Positions 1,815 through 47,681 of a stretch of DNA of 64,000 nucleotides are shown one piece after another. Position 1 is the stretch's first letter. Each line of letters opens with the position of its first letter. Position numbers and translations under genes: made by a program. This DNA is from Candidatus Woesearchaeota archaeon (GTDB lineage: Archaea > Nanobdellota > Nanobdellia > Pacearchaeales > GW2011-AR1). Location of the stretch: NCBI GenBank assembly GCA_964467035.1, contig CAYXNX010000003.1:21252-85251 (forward strand), written 5' to 3'. Below the pieces are notes generated by a model. That model did no database searches. It saw only the letters and a program-made list of their open reading frames with translations, and was not told the origin of the DNA.

Positions 1815-2414
1815 ATGAAAGACTATGTAAATCCTCACGTACATGATTGGATGTTTCTCCAAGGAAATCCTGTATTATTTGGAGAAGAAAGAAAAGGTTT
1901 ACAAAGATTTTTAGAAAGATGGGATGAGCAAGAAACGTTTTTTTATACAAGAGATTCGAAAAAAGACATAGATACTTTCCGAAGGCTAGTTCAAATGAAA
2001 GAGGTATTTATTAGGTCTTTTGGAGAAATAGATTATGGAGAAGATTCGGAATATATGAAAATTTATGTCCCTTTTCATTTTACTAAAACAGGTGAAAATC
2101 TAGACAATTTTTGTTTATTTGCATATGATGAATTATTGGATAAATATCCCCATAAAAAAATGGTTGATGCGTTAATGTTTATGAGAGATTGTATTCAAGA
2201 AGATTACGCCTTTTATACGCGAATCATTAAAGGGGATGAGGATTTGCTTGGTTCAGATTATATTTTTTTAAACGATCGGGAGAGGTCTTTTATGTACGCT
2301 TCGGATAGGGATGAATGCAGTGGAGGAACCCCCTATACTCGTTGTCGGTATTTTGATTCTCCAATTTGCGATAATTGTCGTTTTCCAAACAATCATTTAT
2401 TTGAAGAAAAATAA
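1815..2414 (+). CDS. hypothetical protein with a Cys-rich C-terminus (accessory ORF bracketed by Family A repeats)
   Basis: 199-aa ORF with no recognisable family. C-terminal CSGG..C.Y....CDNC cluster. Flanked by GC-rich repeat regions. Confidence 0.5.
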   Translation: MKDYVNPHVHDWMFLQGNPVLFGEERKGLQRFLERWDEQETFFYTRDSKKDIDTFRRLVQMKEVFIRSFGEIDYGEDSEYMKIYVPFHFTKTGENLDNFCLFAYDELLDKYPHKKMVDALMFMRDCIQEDYAFYTRIIKGDEDLLGSDYIFLNDRERSFMYASDRDECSGGTPYTRCRYFDSPICDNCRFPNNHLFEEK

Positions 2415-26257: not shown

Positions 26258-27178
26258 ATGATAGAAATATATAAAAGAACTTCTAAAAATGAATCTTTCA
26301 AAAAAATAGACAAATACCAAAAAAACAGTTGGATAAATGTCGTAAATCCTGAAAAAGAAGAGATTGATGAAATCATAAAAAAATTTAATTTAGATAAGGA
26401 TAAATTCGTCGATGGATTAGACATAAATGAATCTCCTAGAATTGAATCAGAAAGCGAAGGAATCTATGTTTTTCTAAGAATTCCCACCAAAAAAATATCT
26501 GATCAAGAAACTTCTTCTTTCCTTATAATTATCACAAAAAATAATTTCATAACAATTTCAAGAAATAACTTAGAAATTTTTGAAAAGGTTAAAACTGGGA
26601 AAATGGTTTTTTATACAGACCAACATGCAAGAAATATAATGAAATTTCTTTATTTAATATCAAGAGATTTTGACATTTCTGTTCGAAGAATATATAAAGA
26701 AATTAAAAAAGAAAGAAAAAATTTGAAAAATTTGAAAAACCAAGATTTAATTGATTTAGTTCGAACCGAGGATATTCTCAATGACTATAACTACTCCTTC
26801 CATCCTTTAGTAGATATTTATAAAAAAATTGTAAAAATCCGCTCTTTAAAATTCAGTGAAGAAGATAAAGATTTTATTGAAGATTTAATTGTTGATTTAA
26901 ATCAAACAATGAATATTAATTTACTTACTTTAAAAACAATAACAAACATGAGAAAATATTATTCGACAAGTGTTTCAAATAGATTAAATGATATAATTAC
27001 TGTTTTAACAGTTTTTACAATCTTTTTAACAATTCCGACATTAATTTCAAGTATTTACGGAATGAATGTAGCTCTCCCTTTCCAACATAGTCCTTATGTT
27101 TTATTCATTCTTTTAGGAGTTTTAATATTTCTTTGGGCAATTTTTCTTGGAGTAATTAAATGGAAGAAGATTATCTAA
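26258..27178 (+). CDS. corA: CorA-family magnesium/cobalt transporter
   Basis: C-terminal two TM helices with the YGMNV motif. Confidence 0.8.
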   Translation: MIEIYKRTSKNESFKKIDKYQKNSWINVVNPEKEEIDEIIKKFNLDKDKFVDGLDINESPRIESESEGIYVFLRIPTKKISDQETSSFLIIITKNNFITISRNNLEIFEKVKTGKMVFYTDQHARNIMKFLYLISRDFDISVRRIYKEIKKERKNLKNLKNQDLIDLVRTEDILNDYNYSFHPLVDIYKKIVKIRSLKFSEEDKDFIEDLIVDLNQTMNINLLTLKTITNMRKYYSTSVSNRLNDIITVLTVFTIFLTIPTLISSIYGMNVALPFQHSPYVLFILLGVLIFLWAIFLGVIKWKKII

Positions 27179-27608
27179 ACCAACCTGTTACACTTGATAA
27201 AAATCTCAGAAATCCAAACTTTATTTTTTTCCCAAAACCTACAGCCTCATAGTCAATATCCTCATTATTTAAAGCTGTTTCAAAACTTCCCAAAACATCT
27301 TCAGAATTTTGAATTTCCTTCAAGGTTTTTTCATCAGTATATACTCTTAATGTCGGGTTTTCAATTCCTTCTTTTTGAGCTCCAACAAACTTTTTATTTT
27401 CAGTAACAATTCCAACGACAATTTCCTCCCCATTATTCATTGAAATATAAATATCCATTCTTTCATTTCCAAATAATTTTCCAGCCACTCCTGGAATTTC
27501 TTCACCTGAAAATTTTTTAATTTCTTCAAGAGTTGAATCCACTTCACTAGCCCCAACTAGTAAAAAACTAAAAACTAGAACCAAGCTTAAACAAAATATT
27601 TTGCTCAT
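27171..27608 (-). CDS. hypothetical secreted protein
   Basis: Signal-peptide-like MSKIFCLSLVLVFSFLLVGAS. The ATG overlaps the thioredoxin stop (ATGA). Confidence 0.5.
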   Translation of the reverse strand: MSKIFCLSLVLVFSFLLVGASEVDSTLEEIKKFSGEEIPGVAGKLFGNERMDIYISMNNGEEIVVGIVTENKKFVGAQKEGIENPTLRVYTDEKTLKEIQNSEDVLGSFETALNNEDIDYEAVGFGKKIKFGFLRFLSSVTGWFR

Positions 27609-27949
27609 TGTAAATTTTTGTCCAACCATTCAATTACTTTCGATTCTGGAAGAGCTCCAACAAATTCATCAGCTATTTCTCCGTTTTTGAATAGTTTAAC
27701 AGCTGGAATACTCATAACCCCATATTCTGCAGGTTTATTTTGATTTTGATTAACATCAACCTTAACTAAAACAAATTTACCTTCATATTTTTCACTTAAC
27801 TTTTCAAGAATTGGTCCCAACATTTGACAAGGCGCACACCAATCAGCCCAAAAATCCACAACAACTGGAACTTGTTTTGATTTTTCAATTACCTCTTGTT
27901 CAAAATTTGCATCAGTTACATCAACCATATCCTTAAAAAAAGAAGACAT
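27605..27949 (-). CDS. trxA: thioredoxin
   Basis: VVDFWADWCAPCQMLGP active site. Length 114 aa. Confidence 0.9.
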   Translation of the reverse strand: MSSFFKDMVDVTDANFEQEVIEKSKQVPVVVDFWADWCAPCQMLGPILEKLSEKYEGKFVLVKVDVNQNQNKPAEYGVMSIPAVKLFKNGEIADEFVGALPESKVIEWLDKNLQ

Positions 27950-28333
27950 TATTTAAATTTATCGTTATCTAAAAATTATGCTCCCACCAGACATATATCA
28001 CTCCCTAAAAGGATTACATCTCTTTCTTCTTGATTTATCTTTTAATTACCATTTTGTCTCATTAAGAAGTTTTGTCCATCTCTGAAGTGTTCTTTTCCTT
28101 ACCTCAACAAATTTGGAGAAAATAATTTTTCTACACTGATTTTGTAATCCATATGAACCGCCATTTATAAATTATAAATTTAATTATATTCTAAAGATTT
28201 CTTTTTTAACATGTCTGATGGACTGGAATTGCCCTCTTTTTCTAAAAGAACATTAAACTTAAACTAAATTGCAACCAACATCGGGCTTAAAAGAAGTTTA
28301 ATTTACTCTAAAAAATCCTCCTCGTGAAACAAA

Positions 28334-28413
28334 GCTGATAATTTTTTCAGAGCTGGGGCGAAATTTTGGGAAATCATCCAGTTTGAGATTTCCTCTTTAT
28401 CTTCTGTTCAACG
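28334..28413. repeat. Family B structured hairpin repeat, copy B1
   Basis: gctgataa...ctgttcaacg outer arms and ggaaatc/gatttcc apical stem. 28341-28375 is identical to 47457-47491 (35 nt). Flanking homology to 47375-47456 begins near 28267. Confidence 0.8.
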
Positions 28414-28506
28414 ACCCAATCTGATAGGCGAGAATGCAACATTCTGAAGTAAAATTTTAGGCGAGGGCTCTGTTTTTAATCTTTTTATGAAGCAAAGTTT
28501 TGTTAT

Positions 28507-29154
28507 TTATCTTAACATTTTACCAACATATTGTGTTGTAGCTAAATTTTCAAGAGCGATAGTGTAAACCATCTCACTATGTAATCTTCCCATATCCATA
28601 GGGTTGACTCCAAGTTTGAATTGGACAGTTCTAATTCCTTCTTCTGCTTTTCCTTCACAAAGCAAGAGATATAAACCATCCCCAATTTCCCGAGGTTCTG
28701 CCACCCCATGTTCAGATTCATTTCCAAATTGATTAAGAAACTCTTTTGTTGGAATAATCTTTCCAGTCATTCCTTCTAAAGTAGATAAATATCTTTTAAG
28801 AGGTTCATTTTGAACGGTGTTTCTTACCATATTTGATATGTTCGGAGTTCTATGCCAAAAAACATCTGGTTCAGATTTTCTACTTCTTTGCTCAACTAAT
28901 TTTTCATAGATATGTCCATCAGAATGGGCATAGTCTTGTTTTTGTGGATTTGATTTAAAATAGGCAACTACTTCTTTCGGAACATTTGTTTCTTCTAATA
29001 ATCGTCCACTATTGTGTCCACCCCTTACACTATCTGGAACTTCCTCTGGCTTTATGGTAGAGACAGACAAAATTTGCATTAAAGGATAGTCTCTAAACCC
29101 TCTTATTTCTCTATCACAACAAGGACACTTTTCGTTTGGTTTTTGTTCTGACAT
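28507..29154 (-). CDS. hypothetical protein (accessory ORF in island 1)
   Basis: 215-aa ORF with N-terminal CPCC. No recognisable family. Long leader with GGAG 9 nt before the ATG. Confidence 0.55.
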   Translation of the reverse strand: MSEQKPNEKCPCCDREIRGFRDYPLMQILSVSTIKPEEVPDSVRGGHNSGRLLEETNVPKEVVAYFKSNPQKQDYAHSDGHIYEKLVEQRSRKSEPDVFWHRTPNISNMVRNTVQNEPLKRYLSTLEGMTGKIIPTKEFLNQFGNESEHGVAEPREIGDGLYLLLCEGKAEEGIRTVQFKLGVNPMDMGRLHSEMVYTIALENLATTQYVGKMLR

Positions 29155-29309
29155 TTTTAATCTCCAAATCTCTAAGAAAACTTAGAGGTTTATCCTTCAC
29201 CTCTTAATAATTAGAAATAAAGGGTAGTTTATAAATTTTTGCCCATTTTGAGTAACTGCTGAAGGCAGACTATATGTGCGTAAGCACTGCCCGAGCCCAA
29301 AATTTTATT

Positions 29310-29395
29310 GCTGATAACACTGGAATTTAACGAAGTTTTGCCGTAGAAAAAATTTGGGAAAATCCTGCAGGATTTTCTGTTTAAGCCCTGTTATG
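29310..29395. repeat. Family B structured hairpin repeat, copy B3
   Basis: gctgataac ... gttatg outer boxes. Perfect 20-nt palindrome gaaaatcctgcaggattttc at 29358-29377. The downstream segment 29397-29467 is homologous to 47530-47583. Confidence 0.75.
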
Positions 29396-29562
29396 TCTTC
29401 CGAGGTCTTTAACACGAGAGCCTGCAAGGCGTGGCACGAGCAGAACGAACGAAGTGACCTCGTGAGTTTCCAATCTCCGAAAATTCGTTGTTATCGTAGT
29501 TGTCAGAGAATTATTTTGAATTTGCCGAAAATTTTAAAAATAGAGAACATCTTCTTTTTTGT

Positions 29563-29910
29563 ATGGCAGAAAGTCAATCAAGATATAGTATAGTTGAAAG
29601 ACTTACAACAAGAAAACTAGAGCTAATGGATAGTAAGTCTAAGTTAAAGGAAGATGTGAAATCAAAAGAACAGCACATTGATAAATTAAAAAAAGATTTA
29701 GCAAATTGGAAGAAAGATGTTCAAGAGGACACAAAAAGAGAACAGAGAAGAAAAGAATTAGGAATTGAAAGAGCTTCTCAAGAATTTAATAATACTAAAG
29801 AACAGATGAAAGATAAAGAAAAAGTCTTTGACGACCAAGTTAAAGCTATCGAAGAAGCTCTTCAATCTATTGAAGAAATTAGTAAAACTTCTCCGACTGT
29901 TCAATCATAG
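29563..29910 (+). CDS. hypothetical coiled-coil protein (accessory ORF in island 1)
   Basis: ATG at 29563 (MAESQSRYSIVERL...) sits about 20 nt downstream of an attttaaaaatag TATA-like box. Heptad-rich Lys/Glu sequence. Confidence 0.5.
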   Translation: MAESQSRYSIVERLTTRKLELMDSKSKLKEDVKSKEQHIDKLKKDLANWKKDVQEDTKREQRRKELGIERASQEFNNTKEQMKDKEKVFDDQVKAIEEALQSIEEISKTSPTVQS

Positions 29911-29992
29911 TCCTCTAAAAAATTATGAATGCCATGTGCGTCAAGAGGACACCTTGGTAAAACTAAATCAATGCCATGTGCTGATTCCCTAG

Positions 29993-30017
29993 GCAGGTTC
30001 AAATCCTGCGCGCGGAG
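29993..30017 (+). other. tRNA 3'-end-like fragment (T-arm plus acceptor strand)
   Basis: GCAGG TTCAAAT CCTGC GCGCGGA G read directly. No D or anticodon arm upstream. Preceded by a duplicated 12-mer aatgccatgtgc (29927-29938, 29969-29980). Confidence 0.5.
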
Positions 30018-30036
30018 AGATGATTCTCTTCGCAGG

Positions 30037-30072
30037 GGCTTTTATTCTCTGACAGGCTTTTATTCTCTGACA
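30037..30072. repeat. perfect 18-nt tandem duplication (ggcttttattctctgaca x2)
   Basis: Read directly: 30037-30054 = 30055-30072. Confidence 0.9.
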
Positions 30073-30075
30073 ATT

Positions 30076-30143
30076 TCGTTAAAATTTTGTTAAGCAGATT
30101 TGCGTAGCAATTTTGTGAGAGCTTTCTTTATGATTTTAACGAA
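30076..30143. repeat. Family B-related hairpin, copy B5
   Basis: 11-bp perfect stem ttcgttaaaat / attttaacgaa enclosing gcgtagcaatttt (compare gcgtagcgaacgatttt in 46131-46148). Followed by gataaca. Confidence 0.6.
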
Positions 30144-30221
30144 GATAACAATATTAGAATTTTCAGTTTTAACCTCTGTGGAGGCAAGTCCCGAATTGAG
30201 CATAACACCGATTATGTCCAA

Positions 30222-30761
30222 TCAAGAATTCATCTCTTTAATCTTCTTTATTAATTCTTTTATATCTTTATTATTTTTCATTATCAAAAATTCTTTTGCA
30301 TATTTTTGTAGATAATCTTTGTGAGAATCTAAAGTCACAAAATGATTTGGGTCGTGATAATATTTGTGGACTTTTTTCATAATATTAAATGTTGATTTAA
30401 TCCCATTATCTTGATATTTATAATTATGGAATTTTCTCTTAAAATGTCTTGAGAAAATTCTTTTGTATAATACCAGTTGAGGTATTTGCAAGAAAATTAC
30501 TAAATCTGCTTTCTTATATAATTCGACAGCATAAGAAGTCCACGCACCTTCAGTAATCCAAGATTTTTTATTTGAAATTTCTTTTACTTTTTTCAATCGC
30601 TCTTTAACAGGCCAAATTATATCATATTTTCGTTTATATTTTATTTCATCCAAATCGTAAGTTTTTATTTTTAATAAAGAGGATAATTTTTTTGCTAGTG
30701 TTGATTTCCCAGAACCATAAATTCCCACAATATGGATTTTTGAAATTCTCTTTTTTCCCAT
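30222..30761 (-). CDS. P-loop NTPase, adenylate-kinase/FlaR-like
   Basis: IHIVGIYGSGKSTLAKKL Walker A at the N-terminus. Size 179 aa. Confidence 0.6.
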   Translation of the reverse strand: MGKKRISKIHIVGIYGSGKSTLAKKLSSLLKIKTYDLDEIKYKRKYDIIWPVKERLKKVKEISNKKSWITEGAWTSYAVELYKKADLVIFLQIPQLVLYKRIFSRHFKRKFHNYKYQDNGIKSTFNIMKKVHKYYHDPNHFVTLDSHKDYLQKYAKEFLIMKNNKDIKELIKKIKEMNS

Positions 30762-30885
30762 AAAAAAATTATTTATTGTATATTTAAATCTCTTTCTATT
30801 TTTAACTATGACTTCTTAACTTCTCACTTCATTCGTCGGCAGATTTAACACCTCTTAACCAAAATTACTCATTTCATTCGCAACC

Positions 30886-30946
30886 CACTTCAAACAAATA
30901 TCTGAAAAACTCGTGCCTCTCCAAGTATTTGGGTTAGATTAACACA
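30886..30946. repeat. Family A dispersed repeat, solo copy 3
   Basis: cacttcaaacaaatatctgaaaaactcgtgcctctccaagtatttgggttagattaacaca aligns with 1480-1543. Enclosed by cattcgc (30874-30880) / gcgaata (30947-30953). Confidence 0.8.
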
Positions 30947-31084
30947 GGCGAATACTCCTTTATTCTAAGTTTAAAGTATTCTTTTCTTATTTCTTCTTTT
31001 TTCATACAAAACCGAAGAATCTATCTCCGAACTATTTTTTGATTTTGCCTAGTGACATATGTCCACCTTGCTATACACATTATC

Positions 31085-32089
31085 TCAAAACAATGTCTTT
31101 TGTTTCTGTTTTTCCTTAGATTCTCTTAATTTTGCCAATTGCTTTTCAATTCTCTCTTCAGAAAAATCGTGGCTCATTAAAACCTCTTTAATTTTATTTT
31201 CATTAATTTTTGGAAACTCAATTTCAATATTTTGCTCAATTTTTGGTTTTTTAAACATCTGGAAGATTTCATGCCAATCAAAATCAGCATCAGGAAATTG
31301 CTCAAAAATTTCAACAGGAGTTTTATATTTTCGAACAGCATCTAAAGCTTTTTTTTGCCCAATTCCCGGAATCCCTGCAGGATTATAATCAGTTCCAACT
31401 AAAATTCCTAAACAAATTAATTGCTCATAATTTATTTGCAATTTATTCAAAACTCTTTCTAGCTCAACAACAACAGGAAAAACTTCTTTCACACCAGTGA
31501 AAGTCTTTCTTTTCTTTGACATTGTTAAATTCTGAATTAATCTAGGAGCCCCAAAAAGCAAGCAATCATAATCTTGCGAACCCACAGCATAAGCTTGGTG
31601 ATTTTTATTTAATACAGATGCTTGGGCTTCACCCTCGCTAGGAGCTTGAATAACAGGAATCCCCATAGCTTCTAATAATTCTTTAGATTCTTCAATCATA
31701 TCCTTAGAAAGTTTGGCAGTTTGTTGGCTGTATTTTTTCATAGAATCATAATCTTCTTTTTCTTTTGCTTTTTCATATTTTTCTTTAGCAATTTCTTTAA
31801 TTTTTTCCCTCTTTTCTTTTGTAGCACTCTTTAAATCTGGAGGTTCCCCATCAAAAACATAGACAACCCTAATTCCCTCGTTTAACAAATTAATATTCCT
31901 ATAAAAAAGCCCAGACAAATGGCTTGTAATCCTCCCTTTACTATCTTGCAAAGGAGTTCCGTCATATTGCCTTATAGTAGAAGTAAATTGATAAATTGCA
32001 TTAAATGCATCAACAACAACTATCTTTCCATTAAGCTCTGCAAACGAAATTTCTTTTTTTGGAACAATATCTTTTATACTTAAACCCAT
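31085..32089 (-). CDS. fen: flap endonuclease 1
   Basis: MGLSIKDIVPKKEI..GKIVVVDAFNAIYQF N-domain, an I-domain and a H3TH region. Confidence 0.9.
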   Translation of the reverse strand: MGLSIKDIVPKKEISFAELNGKIVVVDAFNAIYQFTSTIRQYDGTPLQDSKGRITSHLSGLFYRNINLLNEGIRVVYVFDGEPPDLKSATKEKREKIKEIAKEKYEKAKEKEDYDSMKKYSQQTAKLSKDMIEESKELLEAMGIPVIQAPSEGEAQASVLNKNHQAYAVGSQDYDCLLFGAPRLIQNLTMSKKRKTFTGVKEVFPVVVELERVLNKLQINYEQLICLGILVGTDYNPAGIPGIGQKKALDAVRKYKTPVEIFEQFPDADFDWHEIFQMFKKPKIEQNIEIEFPKINENKIKEVLMSHDFSEERIEKQLAKLRESKEKQKQKTLF

Positions 32090-32580: not shown

Positions 32581-35034
32581 ATGGAAATAGATTTCATACC
32601 TTTAGATTATGATTATTTTGATTTTGAAGGTAAAAGTTATGTAAAAATTTTTGGAAATACACTATCAAAGAAAAAAGTTTGTCTAATAGACACTTGTGAT
32701 GTTTTTTTATGGGCTATTTTAAAATCCTCTGTAAAAGAAAAACAAATTCCAAAAATAATTGAAGAAATAAACAAAATCTCAGTTAAATCAAAAAATAGAA
32801 CTGCTAAAGTTTTATCAACAAAATTAGAAAACAAAAAATTCTTGGGAAAAAAAGTCAAGGCACTTAAAATTAAGATTACTAATCACAAAGACCTAACAAA
32901 AATTGCAGAATCACTTCCTCACAAATATATTGAACATATTAGGGAACACGACATAAATTTTACAACAAGATATATTTTAGAGAGCAATTTAATTCCTTCA
33001 ACATGGTGTTCAATTCAAGGAGAGGAAATTTCACAAACTAATGAATTCAATGGAATTGCAAATTCCTTAGATGTAGATTTATGTTTAAAGGTTGGAAAAA
33101 TAAAAAAATTAGAAAAAGAAAAAATTCTGCATCCCAATGTGTTAGCTTTGGATATTGAAACAGAAGAATTTGAAATTGGAAAAGGTGAAATTTTAATGAT
33201 TTCTTTGGTTTCTGATAATTTTAAAAAAGTTATCACCTGCAAAACCCAAGGAAAAAATCAACCAAATGTTGAATATTTTAGCTCAGAGAAAAAAATGCTT
33301 GAAGGATTAGTAAATTATATTAAAAAAATCTCACCCGACATAATTACTGGATATTTTTCAGATGGATTTGACATACCCTATCTAAAATCCCGTGCTCAAA
33401 AAAATAAAGTAAAATTATCCTTGGGAATTGATTCAAGCGAGCCCAAATTTTCAGGTGGTTTAAGTAAAAGAGCGAAAATATCCGGTCGCACCCATATAGA
33501 TTTATTTCAATTTATTCAAACTGCTTACTCCCAATACCTTCAAAGCGAAACACTTTCTTTAAATGATGTTGCATCAGAACTTTTAGGAGAAGAAAAAATT
33601 GACCACGAATTTAAACCGCAAGCAAAAATGACTTCCTCAGAATGGACAAAATTTTTTAAATATAATCTCCAAGATTCACTTTTAACTTACAATCTTTTTA
33701 TGAAGGCATGGCCAGATATTTTAGAATTTTCAAGAACAATGCAAGAACCTTTATTTGATGTTTCTAGAAATGGAATGAGTGCAAATATTGATAGTTACAT
33801 AATTCATAACTTATCAAGATACGATGAAATAGTTGAAAAACGTCCAACTCATGAAATGATTTCAAAAAGAAGAAAACGCGAACAATACGAAGGCGCATTT
33901 GTGCTCCAACCAATTCCCAAACTTTATGAAAAAATTGTAATGTTTGATTTCACAAGTTATTGGCCCAGTATCATTGCATCTTTTAACTTATCTTATTCAA
34001 CATTTTTAGAAAAAAAATCACAAAACTCTAGAGAAGTGGAACTAAGCAAAGGGAAAAAAATTTACTTTTCTAAAAGTCCTGGATTTTTTCCAGAAATGTT
34101 AAAAGAAATAATCTTGTTAAGAAAAAAATATAAAAAACAATATCAAAAAAATCCTTCACCAATTTTAAAAGCTCGAAGCAATGCTTTCAAACTTTTGGCA
34201 AATGCTTCTTACGGATATCAAGGATTTTTCGGAGCAAGGTATTATTGTCCTGAAGCAAGTGCTGCTACAACTGCTATTTCCCGCCAATATATGAAAAAAT
34301 TAATTAAAGATTCAAAAAAACAAAGATTTAACCCTATTTACTCTGACACAGATTCTCTTGCACTCGAGTTAAAAGAAAAAACAAAAACTCAATCTTTGGA
34401 ATTTTTAAAAAAAATTAACTCAAAACTTCCAGGAATTATGGAATTAGAGCTTGAAGATTTTTACAAAAGAGGGATTTGGGTTACAACTCGCGAAGGCAAA
34501 ATAGGGGCAAAGAAAAAATACGCCTTGATTAATGAAAAAGGAAAATTAAAAATTAGAGGTTTTGAAACAGTTCGAAGAGATTGGTGTCAACTTGCTCGAG
34601 AACTTCAAAATAAAACTCTTAAAAAAATACTTGAAGATGGAAATGAAAAATCTGCTTTAGAGTTAATTAAAAAAACAATCAAAAAAATAAAAAACAGAGA
34701 GGTTGAAAAAAAGAAACTTATAATAAAAACCCAACTAAAAAAACCTCTTTCAGAATATAAGGCAAAAACTCCCCATGTTACAATTGCAAAAAAAATGCTG
34801 TCTCAAGGTATGCCAGTAAATCAAGGAATGCTAATCCAATATTATATAGCACAATCTGAAAATAAAAAAGCTTTAACAAGAGAACGCGCAAATTTTCCTG
34901 AAGAAAACAAACCTTATGATATTGAATACTACCTAAAAAAACAAATCCTTCCAGCAATTGAAAATATTTTGCAAACTTTTAATATAGAGGCAAAAGAATT
35001 TTTAGAAAATGAAAAACAAAAAAAATTATTTTAA
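32581..35034 (+). CDS. polB: family B DNA polymerase
   Basis: Exo I LALDIETEE, and polymerase motifs SYWPSII, KLLANASYGY and YSDTDSL. Confidence 0.9.
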   Translation: MEIDFIPLDYDYFDFEGKSYVKIFGNTLSKKKVCLIDTCDVFLWAILKSSVKEKQIPKIIEEINKISVKSKNRTAKVLSTKLENKKFLGKKVKALKIKITNHKDLTKIAESLPHKYIEHIREHDINFTTRYILESNLIPSTWCSIQGEEISQTNEFNGIANSLDVDLCLKVGKIKKLEKEKILHPNVLALDIETEEFEIGKGEILMISLVSDNFKKVITCKTQGKNQPNVEYFSSEKKMLEGLVNYIKKISPDIITGYFSDGFDIPYLKSRAQKNKVKLSLGIDSSEPKFSGGLSKRAKISGRTHIDLFQFIQTAYSQYLQSETLSLNDVASELLGEEKIDHEFKPQAKMTSSEWTKFFKYNLQDSLLTYNLFMKAWPDILEFSRTMQEPLFDVSRNGMSANIDSYIIHNLSRYDEIVEKRPTHEMISKRRKREQYEGAFVLQPIPKLYEKIVMFDFTSYWPSIIASFNLSYSTFLEKKSQNSREVELSKGKKIYFSKSPGFFPEMLKEIILLRKKYKKQYQKNPSPILKARSNAFKLLANASYGYQGFFGARYYCPEASAATTAISRQYMKKLIKDSKKQRFNPIYSDTDSLALELKEKTKTQSLEFLKKINSKLPGIMELELEDFYKRGIWVTTREGKIGAKKKYALINEKGKLKIRGFETVRRDWCQLARELQNKTLKKILEDGNEKSALELIKKTIKKIKNREVEKKKLIIKTQLKKPLSEYKAKTPHVTIAKKMLSQGMPVNQGMLIQYYIAQSENKKALTRERANFPEENKPYDIEYYLKKQILPAIENILQTFNIEAKEFLENEKQKKLF

Positions 35035-40458: not shown

Positions 40459-40690
40459 ATTTTGACAAATATTTGAAGTTTTATATTAATTTATATATAA
40501 AAAAAGATGTATTAAAATAACTAAGGGACCTAAATAATAAGGTCCCTTTTCTGCCCCCTCCTTCTCCCAACCCTGCTCGCCTTGTTCCATCCTTTTCAAA
40601 CCCCCACTCGCAAAGTTGCTCTGACTCGAAAAATCAAATTTTGAATCTCAACAAATCTACGAAGTAGTAGGGAATCTACGATTCCCAATA

Positions 40691-40919
40691 TGCCCCCTCC
40701 GGGACTCGAACCCGGGTCTGGGCCGTTCTCCGAAGATCCCAAAATTCGCTGAAAAAACGAAAGCTTCTTCATTAACTCTCGGGACCTAACAATTAACTAA
40801 TTGTCGACCTATGAAGTCTTGCCAGAGAGCAGCTGATTTGAGAATCTAGGTTTATCCTTTCATCAAGGATAAACCACTGCTCGAGAGGGCCCAATGCTTG
40901 ACCGCTACACCAAAGGGGC
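40691..40919 (-). tRNA. tRNA-Glu (anticodon CUC) with an intron of about 156 nt at 37/38
   Basis: 5' exon GCCCCUUUGGUGUAGCGGUCAAGCAUUGGGCCCUCUCG (40919-40882). 3' exon CGGCCCAGACCCGGGUUCGAGUCCCGGAGGGGGCA (40725-40691). The acceptor, D, anticodon and T stems all pair. A bulge-helix-bulge can be drawn: a 4-bp helix CUCU/GGAG flanked by 3-nt bulges CGA and AAC. Confidence 0.8.
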
Positions 40920-40955
40920 ATAAATAACCTCAATTTTCTAAGTATAAAAATCTTA

Positions 40956-42671: not shown

Positions 42672-42789
42672 GGCTCGAATCAAACGCTCCAAGCAGGATT
42701 CGATCCTGTATGTTGAGTTTACGAAACATCCGCAACAAAGTGAGGACAAAGGTTCGAATCAAACTCTCCAAGCAGGATTCCATCCTATA
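42672..42789. repeat. tandem tRNA-T-arm-like repeats abutting the 3' end of tRNA-Gln (79-nt period)
   Basis: 42672-42710 and 42751-42789 match at 35/39 positions (ggYtcgaatcaaacKctccaagcaggattcSatcctRta). The core caggattcga resembles the tRNA-Gln T-arm at 42801-42816. A third related copy is at 41812-41830. Confidence 0.7.
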
Positions 42790-42791
42790 AA

Positions 42792-42864
42792 TAGCCCGTC
42801 CAGGATTCGAACCTGGGTCAGCTGGCCCAGAACCAGCTATACTTGACCACTGTACTAACGGGCT
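42792..42864 (-). tRNA. tRNA-Gln (anticodon CUG), no intron
   Basis: AGCCCGUUAGUACAGUGGUCAAGUAUAGCUGGUUCUGGGCCAGCUGACCCAGGUUCGAAUCCUGGACGGGCUA folds into a full cloverleaf. A1-U72 is typical of archaeal tRNA-Gln. Confidence 0.85.
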
Positions 42865-45472: not shown

Positions 45473-45596
45473 ATTACCTTATTAAATATTATAAAATCCA
45501 AATTAAAAAACTATCTAAACCATGTTGCAAAACTTTTAATAATTATTGAAAGAAAATATTTCTTTTTTTGGTTCTCCAGTGCCTCCTAGATAATTT

Positions 45597-45887
45597 CTAA
45601 AATAAATCTGGTTTCCACCTAAAAAGATCTTCTAAGTTTATTCTTTCCAAGCCCTTGCCAGTAGAAGTAATTGAAATTGAATCTTTGCCTAATTTTTTTG
45701 AAATCACCTTAATTAATTCTAAATTTTCATCAGACATCAAAGGTTCTCCTCCAGAAATATCTAAACTCACATTTAGAATATCTATATTCTCAATAACTGC
45801 TAATTTTTCCCCTAAAGAAAGATCTTTTGTGGGGCTATTTGCATCAAGACAGCAAAAATAACACGAGTAAAGGCATTTATTCGTCAC
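45597..45887 (-). pseudogene. radical SAM protein remnant (N-terminal ~96 codons only)
   Basis: NVTNKCLYSCYFC CX3CX2C motif plus GGEPL, but the ORF stops after 96 aa. The remaining ~120 nt before tRNA-Thr cannot hold the rest of a radical SAM domain. Confidence 0.5.
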
Positions 45888-46110
45888 ATTCCAAATTAGG
45901 GTGTTTTTATCATTTTCATTTTTTCAAGAATTAAGCATCTTGAGGTGCTAACACCTCTAAAAAAAGATATATAAACAGATATATAAATTTAATTGAAACG
46001 AAGTTTCAGCTATCTAATTTTCGATAGAAAAATTGCGCGCGCTTCTTTGGGTGGGAATTATCAATTAGAGATTTAAATTTTTAGCCCTCTTTCTCAATTG
46101 CAATTAACAT

Positions 46111-46184
46111 CGGAATTTAGCGAAGTCGTGAGCGTAGCGAACGATTTTGGAAAATGCGAGCCGAGCATTTTTCCGTTAAATTCC
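46111..46184. repeat. Family B structured hairpin repeat, copy B4
   Basis: Outer stem cggaatttagcg / ccgttaaattcc. Inner stem ggaaaatgc / gcatttttcc. Shares ggaatttaRcgaagt and gcgtag motifs with 29321-29346. Confidence 0.75.
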
Positions 46185-46313
46185 TATTATATTCGTTTTT
46201 CCCAGTAAAAACCTGGGCCAAAGTGAAACGGTTTTTGCGAAGGAAGCACCATTAGTTAAAAGAATAAAGGGCAGGGATTCATTAATTTACTACTATTTAA
46301 TTACTATATAACA

Positions 46314-46349: not shown

Positions 46350-47342
46350 ATGGCAAATGAAACACACTATGGTGTAATATCTGATGTTCATCAAGACCCA
46401 GGAATAGTTCCAGCAACTATTGAAGTTTTGAAAAAATTGGGTGCAGAAAAACTTTTGATAAACGGGGATATTGGAAATCAGCAGAGAACTCTTGAAGATA
46501 GTAAAAATTATGTTGCTTTTATTCTTGATTCAATTGGAAAAAGTGGACTTGAATCTTATGTTCAGCCAGGAAGCCATGAAACACTACTTGCTTTTGGACC
46601 TGTAATGGATGCTTTTGCAGATAAATATTCAAATTTAATTGATGCAACAAAAACTCCAAAAGCAGAACAAAAAGGTCATAGTCTAATTTTCTTGCCAGGT
46701 TCAGATTTTCTTTGTGGTGGGGAATATCAAATCGGAAATCATGAACAAATTCCAAGTGGAAGATATATTCAAACTCAAAAAGGATTAATGCAATTTGAAG
46801 AATTTGGTCAATATGTTGGTGCTCTTCAACAAGGAATTGCTCAAGGAGCAATGCAATATGCCAACATGAATGATTTACGAAGATTGGTAAATGATTCAGA
46901 CAAAAGTATTGTTGTTTGTCATGTTCCAAGAAAATTTGACAATCCTGAATATGCAGTTGATATGGCTGAATTCGGAGAAGCAACAGAAAAATTTAATCTA
47001 AATGGTAATGATGTTGAGCAAGGTTCTGTATTTCCTCTGTCTGTTGCACAGCAGATTGTTCAAGCAGGTTATCCTGTTGAGATAAGACAAGAAAATAGAG
47101 GAAATAAGGATTTAAAATCATTATATGAAGAATTAGGAATAAATAAAGCAGTTAGTGGGCATTTCCATGAGAGTGGACACAGAGCAAATGACACTTATGG
47201 AAATCACGTTTCTGAAGGAAATTTAGTAACTGATTTATTTTGGAATTCTGGACATTTAGATACTGGACAAACAGGAATTTTGACAGTTGGAGACGGAAAA
47301 GTAGGTTATAGAAATATCCGTCTTGAAGAACATCTGAAATAG
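46350..47342 (+). CDS. calcineurin-like metallophosphoesterase (accessory ORF in island 2)
   Basis: ISDVHQD, INGDIGN, GSHE, CHVP and GHFHES motifs in canonical order. Confidence 0.7.
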   Translation: MANETHYGVISDVHQDPGIVPATIEVLKKLGAEKLLINGDIGNQQRTLEDSKNYVAFILDSIGKSGLESYVQPGSHETLLAFGPVMDAFADKYSNLIDATKTPKAEQKGHSLIFLPGSDFLCGGEYQIGNHEQIPSGRYIQTQKGLMQFEEFGQYVGALQQGIAQGAMQYANMNDLRRLVNDSDKSIVVCHVPRKFDNPEYAVDMAEFGEATEKFNLNGNDVEQGSVFPLSVAQQIVQAGYPVEIRQENRGNKDLKSLYEELGINKAVSGHFHESGHRANDTYGNHVSEGNLVTDLFWNSGHLDTGQTGILTVGDGKVGYRNIRLEEHLK

Positions 47343-47449
47343 AATCCCTGCCCCTTCTATATTTAGCCGATTTTTTTATTGAGTTTAACATCGTGATTAA
47401 GAGAAGTGGCAATCCCTCCAAAAATTTATCCTCTGGAACGAAGTGACTA

Positions 47450-47530
47450 GCTGAGGATTTTTTCAGAGCTGGGGCGAAATTTTGGGAAATCCCAAGCCGA
47501 AGGATTTCATCTTTATCCCCTGTTATCAGC
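47450..47530. repeat. Family B structured hairpin repeat, copy B2
   Basis: gctgagga ... gttatcagc outer boxes and ggaaatcc / ggatttc apical stem. 47457-47491 is identical to 28341-28375. Confidence 0.8.
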
Positions 47531-47681
47531 CCCGAGGGCTTTAGCCCGAGAACGCAGTGGGGCACGAAGTGAGTTCGAGACGCCTCTTTTTTGTATTTTG
47601 AAATAATATTTTTTTGGGTGGGCTATGTATTAGAGAAGGCACTTTCGTTAAGTTAATAAATAAAACAACTTTCCCATAATC

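Follow-up and report, generated by a model that had tools for sequence, protein, structure and literature searches.

Why are two genes that adjoin each other in a close relative held 3.1 kb apart here, by DNA that combines hairpin repeats, small open reading frames (ORFs) and a piece resembling the 3′ end of a tRNA? The question is raised by positions 27950-31084 of a 64,000-nucleotide stretch (the window) from a Pacearchaeota-like archaeon, the G+C content of which is about 29%. An earlier note, made from the sequence alone, had described 27950-30221 as an island between trxA and a kinase gene, with two orphan ORFs, three hairpin repeats, a tRNA 3′ fragment and a perfect tandem duplication. 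The answer that we favour, and consider fairly probable, is that the island is a decayed patch of integron-like cassettes, among which a conserved module is lodged, made up of one of the ORFs (ORF2) and a structured RNA. The repeats may be read as recombination sites resembling the attC sites of integrons, a likening based on their architecture and context and not on the score of an attC model.

That we are dealing with accessory DNA follows from a comparison of gene order around trxA. In the closest available relative, Pacearchaeota Meg19_1012_Bin_278 (L004; loci retrieved for comparison are cited by L numbers), FEN1 is 71% identical to its counterpart in the window, the genes PolB, FEN1, trxA and p152 are contiguous in this order and the gap between FEN1 and trxA is just 47 bp. 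Since trxA (27605-27949, minus strand; Pfam Thioredoxin, E 8.9e-31) and FEN1 (31085-32089, minus strand) are 3.1 kb apart in the window, 27950-31084 is an indel of variable accessory DNA relative to L004. Exact insertion breakpoints are not definable against L004, the intergenic sequences being too diverged. The earlier note was thus right in seeing an island next to trxA and a kinase gene, both of which are present, but the island extends past 30221 to 31084 and takes in the kinase gene itself. Its two ORFs, at 28507-29154 (minus strand; ORF1) and 29563-29910 (plus strand; ORF2), are likewise present, and 27950-30221 is largely non-coding as claimed, slightly more so than the estimated 1.1 of 2.3 kb: 1276 of its 2272 bases lie outside ORF1 and ORF2.

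A repeat family that folds on one strand

Two of the three hairpin repeats proposed earlier, A (28263-28433) and C (29302-29445), belong to one family together with two copies outside 27950-31084, D (46092-46215) and B (47373-47584), as shown by nhmmer E-values of 3e-25 to 3e-34. The third, near 30075-30221, is by both covariance model (CM) and nhmmer no full member of the family. All four copies lie on the plus strand, and elements of the family measure 85-150 nt. A is a long variant (nhmmer E 2.9e-25) that matches the family pattern, with AAC at 28277-28279 and CTGTT at 28404-28408. C is a short variant followed by a 3′ extension module (29302-29480 in all; core 29307-29399, AAC 29316-29318, CTGTT 29388-29392), which scores 77.4 bits with the CM (E 6.4e-15); its extension, given as 70 nt in the earlier note, is indeed homologous to 47530-47583. 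D (46097-46195 as matched by the CM; 81.4 bits, E 8.2e-16) carries CTATT in place of CTGTT, and B is a long, chimeric variant (nhmmer E 3e-34). A pattern built from these four copies has four matches in the window and none in 100 shuffles of it; it has no match in 1.1 Mb of related loci and occurs in at least 120 metagenome contigs. With a CM based on 25 short copies, 164 copies were detected in 100 loci; applied to the window with filters off, the CM revealed no further full copies in 27950-28262 or 29911-31084. The spacers of the island therefore recur within the window and in many other genomes, contrary to the possibility, raised in the earlier note, that they would be found nowhere else. 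Pattern matches in IMG/VR (L084-L088) were rejected as chance: they represent a near-identical single sequence, lack the 5′ half of the element and have no nhmmer match.

The copies share an elaborate fold. The outer stem of 5 bp, TAACA/TGTTA, is nearly invariant in 145 distinct copies and is separated from the inner stem by an asymmetric bulge (5′ strand, 2-5 nt; 3′ strand, 0-1 nt). The inner stem, about 10 bp long, has 92-96% of its cells paired and compensatory changes at nine of its ten pairs. It leads to a three-way junction composed of GAAG-U, hairpin 1, AUUUGGG and hairpin 2; more than 90% of copies retain GAAGU, AUUUGGG and a G·T wobble, and copy length ranges from 85 to about 150 nt. 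Bulged T residues occur occasionally, and consistent extrahelical bases were not established. In an alignment of the 145 copies that was fitted to the CM, the proportion of paired cells reaches 94.7% (slid controls, 38-50%) and the covariation score 0.447 (controls, 0.06-0.10); changes on both sides are seen at 19 of 25 pairs. An independent MAFFT/RNAalifold analysis of the seed recovered identical stems with 12 compensated pairs. Similarity between elements is higher within lineages than between them.

Only one of the two DNA strands appears suited to this fold. When copies are read as in the plus strand of the window, 290 cells are of the G·T or T·G type and 56 of the A·C or C·A type, and two columns are near-fixed as G·T. 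Moreover, 84 of 145 copies have a C-GNA-G loop at the tip of hairpin 1 (about 14 expected by shuffling), and the motif that the opposite strand would require for such a loop occurs once. GNA triloops closed by a C·G pair are a classic, very stable DNA mini-hairpin. The wobbles and the loops together identify the plus strand as the folding strand. With DNA parameters, the folding z-scores are −2.3 on the plus strand and −0.8 on the minus strand for element C, and −3.0 and −1.6, respectively, for element D. Recombination may be specific to this strand as well.

The repeats could, on another view, be structured non-coding RNAs made from the plus strand, as small RNA genes or as processed cis-elements, and the island would then simply be intergenic DNA rich in RNA genes. 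The very strong covariation, the near-fixed G·U-type wobble, the conserved junction nucleotides and the conserved centre all suit this explanation; GC-rich patches in AT-rich archaeal genomes often are RNA genes, and the intron of the tRNA-Glu gene in the window has a motif similar to the core of the repeats. Yet Rfam offers no counterpart: with Rfam 15, two tRNAs are the only matches in the window at the gathering score, and 27900-31100 is empty even at E≤10. The aligned flanks of the elements show neither conserved promoter-like sequences nor U-run terminators, and the C-GNA-G triloop is a classic stable loop of DNA. Taking into account also the arrangement of the copies described in the next section, we regard the RNA explanation, though the main rival, as unlikely.

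The copies in the window are in a poor state. The duplex energy of the inner stem is −3.2 kcal/mol in A, −4.2 in B and −2.8 in C, compared with a median of −14.0 in 84 metagenome copies. A is chimeric, with a 5′ part about 90% identical to L117 and L199 and a 3′ part like L121 and L090; so is C, with a 3′ part 92-96% identical to copies in L117, L154, L126 and L162. Chimeras of this type presuppose a crossover within the element, such as homologous recombination between copies, because exchange at the outer stem would not yield them. The fact that local copies are chimeric or mutated, together with the lack of a recombinase in the window, suggests that the local patch is probably a relic, its copies presumably inactive. 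The elements of each pair are 1.04 kb (A-C) and 1.28 kb (D-B) apart, distances within the spacing rule for a cluster of attC sites lacking an integron integrase (CALIN), if the elements count as attC. One independent assembly, the 1137-nt contig L001 (Logan SRR11308339_144066), equals window 28346-29482 and ends inside A and C. The repeats thus break assemblies, which suggests that they are multi-copy in the genome of L001.

Arrays, breakpoints and recombinases

In related contigs, the copies form regularly spaced arrays. They are co-oriented in all 34 contigs that have at least two copies, whatever the direction of neighbouring genes; one exception, L155, was found afterwards with the CM. Exactly one ORF is present in 33 of 48 inter-element intervals, with a median spacing of 874 bp; interval ORFs lie opposite the folding strand in 41 cases and on it in 23. 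Long co-oriented arrays of six or seven elements with small ORFs are found in L107 (2815-8247), L190 (579-4673) and L199 (7490-12736).

The second line of evidence comes from the points at which homology between loci ends. L093 and L171 have in common a segment of 312 nt (95% identity) that runs through ...CTAACAT, after which the elements and everything beyond differ. The P-loop kinase-like gene of the window (30222-30761, minus strand; Pfam AAA_18/SKI near threshold), absent between FEN1 and trxA of L004, has a homologue in L110 that is 90% identical in amino acids; at the DNA level, 89% identity extends up to TTGATTRGACATAA, and L110 then enters an intact element. From the other side, the module that includes the supposed third hairpin repeat ('B5'; 30066-30192, plus strand), with its 11-bp perfect stem 30075-30085/30133-30143 (inverted repeat I24), is 87% identical to L126 9239-9379, where an intact element follows directly. 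The homology covers window 30058-30200 (87% identical), and a pairwise alignment reaches about 30208, at the outer-stem AAC, beyond which L126 runs on into the intact element. The L126 homology on the plus strand and the L110 homology on the minus strand both stop at 30193-30221, with an intact element following in both relatives. This short stretch of the window, ATTGAGCATAACACCGATTATGTCCAAT, is a head-to-head junction of two truncated outer-stem (R-box) halves, so that the B5 region proves to be a separate module ending in a truncated outer-stem remnant. In none of the three informative comparisons does homology continue past the outer stem or reappear beyond the element; the varying unit is thus a gene together with its site.

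These observations bear on the RNA explanation as well, since co-orientation regardless of neighbouring genes and homology that breaks at the outer stem do not favour it, nor do the recombinases at one fixed end of the arrays (see below). They also bear on another explanation, according to which the repeats are non-autonomous single-strand DNA transposons, resembling either repetitive extragenic palindromes and bacterial interspersed mosaic elements (REP/BIME) or IS200/IS605 derivatives, moved by an HUH Y1 transposase, whose shared orientation would follow from strand-specific insertion with respect to replication. Such elements, whether associated with REP-associated tyrosine transposases (RAYT) or derived from IS200/IS605, are also short intergenic hairpin repeats that involve single-stranded DNA and show strand bias. 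Consistent with this, only one strand of our repeats appears to fold, copies keep one orientation along contigs and along a 19-kb part of the window situated in a single GC-skew domain, a Y1_Tnp gene is found near the ORF2 homologue of L212, and a DDE transposase adjoins an ORF1 homologue. Transposons of this kind, however, move bare and are tied to HUH Y1 transposases. In the family described here it is the gene and its site that vary together, and the enzymes beside the arrays are Xer/IntI-type tyrosine recombinases instead of HUH transposases, although no scan of the contigs was aimed at Y1. Homology ended at the outer stem without resuming in three of three informative comparisons; each element is one composite hairpin and not two different subterminal hairpins; spacing is regular, with one ORF per interval; and no pairs of filled and empty sites were seen in the locus comparisons. 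We therefore hold the transposon explanation to be quite improbable.

Recombinases are the third line of evidence. In 653 kb of element-bearing contigs, an IntI1 probe detected seven strong and two weaker tyrosine recombinases, all nine on the same side of the array. Five lie 590-920 bp from the nearest copy and on the folding strand; by analogy, these would occupy the expected place and orientation of intI, if the folding strand corresponds to the bottom strand of integrons. Five of the seven strong ones (L139, L195, L096, L100 and L144) were scanned with NCBIfam. Four exceed the 220-bit cutoff of NF040815, a model of XerA-type "site-specific tyrosine recombinase/integron integrase" proteins, and L144 falls just below at 219.5 bits. 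With the integron-integrase model TIGR02249 (cutoff 265), all five remain below, at 191-222 bits, and are matched in two stretches. In an alignment with IntI1, the five recombinases lack both IntI1 insertions and retain the catalytic residues and the C-terminal SPLD.

Integrons are not foreign to archaea. They have been described there mostly as clusters without an integrase, including Pacearchaeales genomes with two or three attC sites (Ghaly et al. 2022, PMC9668308). A CALIN is defined as at least two attC sites on one strand, less than 4 kb apart, without an integron integrase (Cury et al. 2016, PMC4889954). Our family resembles attC sites and CALIN in many respects: imperfect palindromes (85-150 nt) in which the AAC...GTT ends are conserved; an inner stem that conserves pairing but not sequence; an apex of variable length; one preferred folding strand; co-oriented arrays with copies less than 4 kb apart and mostly one short ORF per interval; homology of cassettes that ends at the outer (R) box; and a tyrosine recombinase at one end of some arrays. 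Paired AAC...GTT outer repeats and covarying inner repeats, the hallmarks of attC, are thus found in the family as a whole, while A, B and C individually lack the inner pairing. The differences are also clear. The apex of our elements is organised around a three-way junction and retains conserved sequence motifs, the spacer between the stems is short and largely confined to one strand, ORFs occur in both orientations (41:23), the nearby recombinases have no IntI-specific domain and score below the integron-integrase cutoff, and the local copies are chimeric inside the site, an outcome impossible by R-box exchange.

These comparisons suggest how the island might have formed. A tyrosine recombinase encoded elsewhere in the genome would recognise the folded strand and exchange strands in or beside the outer-stem AAC, so that units of one ORF and one site could be excised and inserted; recombination of the elements as single-stranded DNA and the type of enzyme responsible are what we infer from the evidence above. 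ORF1 would be one such unit between C and A, facing away from the folding strand like most cassette ORFs, and the kinase gene might be another, with its site truncated. The 18-nt duplication of the island could be a slip in the U-rich end of the ORF2 RNA. The local patch as a whole would be comparable to a CALIN.

Several observations weigh against this reading. Unlike the variable terminal structure of attC, the centre of the element (GAAGU, AUUUGGG and the fixed G·U-type wobble) is conserved in sequence, as is typical of functional RNAs, and the spacer between the stems (2-5 and 0-1 nt) is not the canonical one of 5-6 nt on both strands. In A, B and C, the two inner-stem strands derive from different subfamilies and are non-complementary; D pairs well (−14.0 kcal/mol), but its CTATT in place of CTGTT amounts to a mutated GTT; and the long copies A and B fold, with DNA parameters, no better than shuffles. 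The bias in ORF orientation is just 64%, integron cassettes being generally co-oriented. Homology breakpoints number only three or four, and the left end of the segment common to L093 and L171 is not at an element. No recombinase was detected in the 64-kb window by phmmer with IntI1, and both that search and the alignment depend on the IntI1 reference sequence used. Nor is a complete integron, that is, an IntI with its additional domain beside an array, to be seen: the window has none, and the five recombinases scanned in related arrays are devoid of the IntI1 insertions. Lacking the IntI-specific domain, these adjacent enzymes could be ordinary chromosomal XerA.

A further parallel may be seen in the Vibrio cholerae repeats (VCRs) of sedentary chromosomal integrons. 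VCRs form one highly similar attC family with many copies per lineage, and the genes between copies are small and mostly of unknown function or toxin-antitoxin-like, in which they are like the family described here. VCR arrays adjoin a canonical IntI (IntIA), whereas our family goes without IntI and spans many DPANN lineages and habitats. A diversity-generating retroelement, origin-recognition boxes and CRISPR-like repeats were also considered and rejected from sequence: there is no reverse transcriptase and no Orc1, and the patterns of mismatches and repeats do not fit.

ORF2 and its structured RNA

How does ORF2 (29563-29910, plus strand) fit into this picture? The earlier note regarded it as an orphan without a recognisable family. 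There is indeed no match in Pfam or PHROGs, and a profile search of PDB gave coiled-coil noise only. As an orphan, though, ORF2 has to be given up: it encodes a conserved DPANN protein of 115 aa with 273 homologues at 57-84% identity, nearly all of them about 115 aa long, in Nano-, Woese- and Pacearchaeota. AlphaFold2 predicts a single long helix over residues 2-109 (pLDDT 92.7). The neighbours of the homologues vary and are often small toxin-antitoxin-like genes.

What does not vary is the structure directly downstream. The same structured RNA element is present 3′ of every ORF2 homologue examined; in the window it occupies 29905-30050 of the plus strand. Its first hairpin, H1 (29911-29948), begins at the stop codon (UCAUAGUC...) and shows AKCCAUGUGC in its loop. 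Hb and a Y-shaped domain follow (29966-30038). The stem of Hb is AACCA/UGGUU and its loop shows AUGCCAUGUGC; the Y-shaped domain has the form CCC-[H2]-[H3]-GGG and is succeeded by a U-run. All five helices pair in six divergent loci, Hb and H2 with compensatory changes, while the sequences of H1 and H3 differ wholly between loci and their pairing is kept. The element also occurs at the loci of more distant homologues, L220 and L226. ORF2 and the downstream RNA thus constitute a conserved DPANN gene module, here set among cassettes. Neither Rfam nor ARAGORN recognises the RNA. C/D-box and H/ACA small RNAs were rejected as candidates, the box spacing and ACA positions being a misfit and snoRNA matches weak (E 1-6 only). 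Antisense pairing of the 3′ region with the ORF2 coding sequence was rejected too; by a rough estimate, inverted repeats I17-I19 are within chance for an AT-rich region of 3 kb.

The RNA resolves the puzzle of the tRNA 3′ fragment, which the earlier note had placed at 29993-30017 and which implied a mobile-element remnant marked by an att site. More explicitly, the island could be what is left of a virus or plasmid that had inserted at a tRNA gene; the T-arm fragment would then be the duplicated att site, and the ORFs orphan cargo. The T-arm-like sequence does exist: 29993-30017 reads GCAGG TTCAAAT CCTGC GCGCGGA, a T-arm-like hairpin with a GC-rich tail, and 29993-30009, with its 5-bp stem and 7-nt loop UUCAAAU, is like the T-arm and T-loop motif of tRNAs. 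In addition, the stretch is missing from the nearest relative, and an ORF1 homologue elsewhere lies beside a transposase and a tRNA-Ser gene. But the hairpin is H2 of the ORF2 RNA (GCAGG-UUCAAAU-CCUGC, 29993-30009), and the fragment is H2 plus the first bases of H3. H2 is conserved 3′ of ORF2 homologues in unrelated contexts; its loop is UUCRAAU or UUCGAGU in several homologue loci, and in distant homologues it is CCGAU, which is not T-loop-like. Unlike a tRNA, the ORF2 RNA has no cloverleaf, D arm or anticodon arm, and H2 forms an arm of the Y-shaped domain that CCC/GGG closes. Taken as an acceptor strand, the tail would imply a tRNA with U1-A72, for which the window contains no matching 5′ strand; the T-arm-like sequence is unlike all three tRNAs of the window; and ARAGORN calls no tRNA in the region, even with introns of up to 900 nt, and neither does the Rfam tRNA model. 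A split, permuted or intron-containing tRNA was considered and rejected, there being no 5′ acceptor strand in the window and no D-arm after the hairpin. Searches in the direction of viruses were equally unrewarding, with no integrase in the window, no PHROG match above noise and no true IMG/VR match. Integration at a tRNA gene is thus largely refuted, and we consider it very improbable.

At the downstream border of the RNA is the 18-nt tandem duplication (30037-30072, plus strand). It is perfect, as the earlier note had stated: its two copies match at 100%, and its Tandem Repeats Finder score of 72 is the highest in the window. It falls in the U-rich end of the ORF2 RNA. The homologous stretch of L126 is single-copy, and the duplication is thus probably recent.

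In Woesearchaeota GCA_016179955.1 and Logan contigs (L226-L231), an intron-containing tRNA comes next after the ORF2 homologue with its RNA; a tyrosine recombinase of 301-303 aa and an Lhr-type helicase lie beyond it.

Might the two systems be new? Archaeal integrons are already known, but a site architecture such as that seen here and its link to XerA-type enzymes were not described in the literature that we searched. It is conceivable, and we put it forward only tentatively, that DPANN archaea possess an integron-like system distinct from classical integrons, with conserved three-way-junction single-strand sites and an XerA-type recombinase without the IntI domain at a fixed end, and that ORF2 and its RNA with two AUGCCAUGUGC loops constitute an undescribed protein-RNA pair across Nano-, Woese- and Pacearchaeota. 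The elements may be the Pacearchaeales sites reported previously (PMC9668308) or a distinct type. Little is known about the ways in which DPANN archaea, host-dependent organisms with tiny genomes, acquire and reshuffle their accessory genes. A widespread cassette-boundary element would help to flag accessory genes, of which many are orphans comparable to ORF1, across hundreds of metagenome-assembled genomes. It would also make it possible to test integron-type single-strand recombination on an Xer-like enzyme without the IntI domain, a matter that bears on the origin of integrons from Xer. More practically, the repeats explain assembly breaks in such genomes. The RNA linked to ORF2 is a new RNA candidate, not represented in Rfam.

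ORF1 and other features of the window

ORF1 (28507-29154, minus strand), which lies between elements A and C and encodes 215 aa with an N-terminal CPxC motif, comes closer to the orphan status assigned to it earlier. It has no family match in Pfam or PHROGs, and a word-indexed search returned only the protein itself and one homologue with 56% identity. A full HMMER scan, however, found 56 remote homologues (cluster representatives) of 200-260 aa that share the motifs CPxC, DFPL, VPxEV, HSDG, YLxxLExLVG and YEGR. The AlphaFold2 model has a pLDDT of 90 and a pTM of 0.83, yet Foldseek finds no match at E≤1e-3 in PDB or BFVD, and a PDB profile search gave no homologue. ORF1 therefore belongs to a small uncharacterised family with a confidently predicted fold unmatched among solved and viral structures.

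The closest ORF1 homologue with known context (56%; L002 and L003, JGI Ga0438325_0073545 and Ga0438327_0083206) has an IS4-type DDE transposase on one side and a tRNA-Ser(GCU) gene on the other. Upstream of ORF1, 29160-29219 (minus strand) is 87% identical at the nucleotide level to L002 511-570 and L003 1151-1210, while the proteins are 56% identical. This leader of 60 nt holds two overlapping hairpins and may be regulatory.

The non-coding DNA at 27950-28262 contains no ORF of at least 60 aa, has a folding z-score of −0.45 relative to shuffles and is without homologues in any fetched locus. At the other end, 30790-30990 (minus strand) is a member of another repeat family, which is divergent and folds on the minus strand; 56 nt of it are 91% identical to 1487-1542, and copies at 30790-30990, 1400-1570 and 2440-2670 align. 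The copy at 2440-2670 ends in ...GATTAATCGCTGTTCAAC, and the adjoining flank is 93-98% identical to sequences located directly after elements in several metagenome loci. Copies 1400-1570 and 2440-2670 flank an orphan ORF (1815-2414, plus strand) with no Pfam or PHROG match.

Beyond the island, the gene for a 152-aa protein (p152, 27171-27629) lies next to trxA, and next to FEN1 is the gene for a family-B DNA polymerase (PolB, 32581-35034, plus strand). A tblastn scan with FEN1, in which each GTDB species was represented by one genome, gave 42-71% identity across 80 genomes of Pacearchaeota, Nanoarchaeota and Woesearchaeota; PolB-FEN1 synteny is widely conserved among them, and what comes after FEN1 varies among relatives other than L004. 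Elements D and B bracket a gene for a calcineurin-like phosphoesterase (46350-47342, plus strand), next to which is a PHP-domain gene. On the other side of D, about 600 nt separate it from tRNA-Tyr (45473-46090); they contain no ATG-start ORF of at least 70 aa and may be a decayed gene.

Two further observations concern tRNA genes. The gene for tRNA-Glu(CUC) (40690-40920, minus strand) has an intron of 156 nt and was missed by default ARAGORN and by Rfam, being found when long introns were allowed; the intron holds CGAATTTTGGGATC, similar to the core of the repeat family. T-arm-like pieces are contained in two direct repeats of 39 nt with 90% identity (42672-42710 and 42751-42789), which lie immediately downstream of tRNA-Gln (42792-42864, minus strand).

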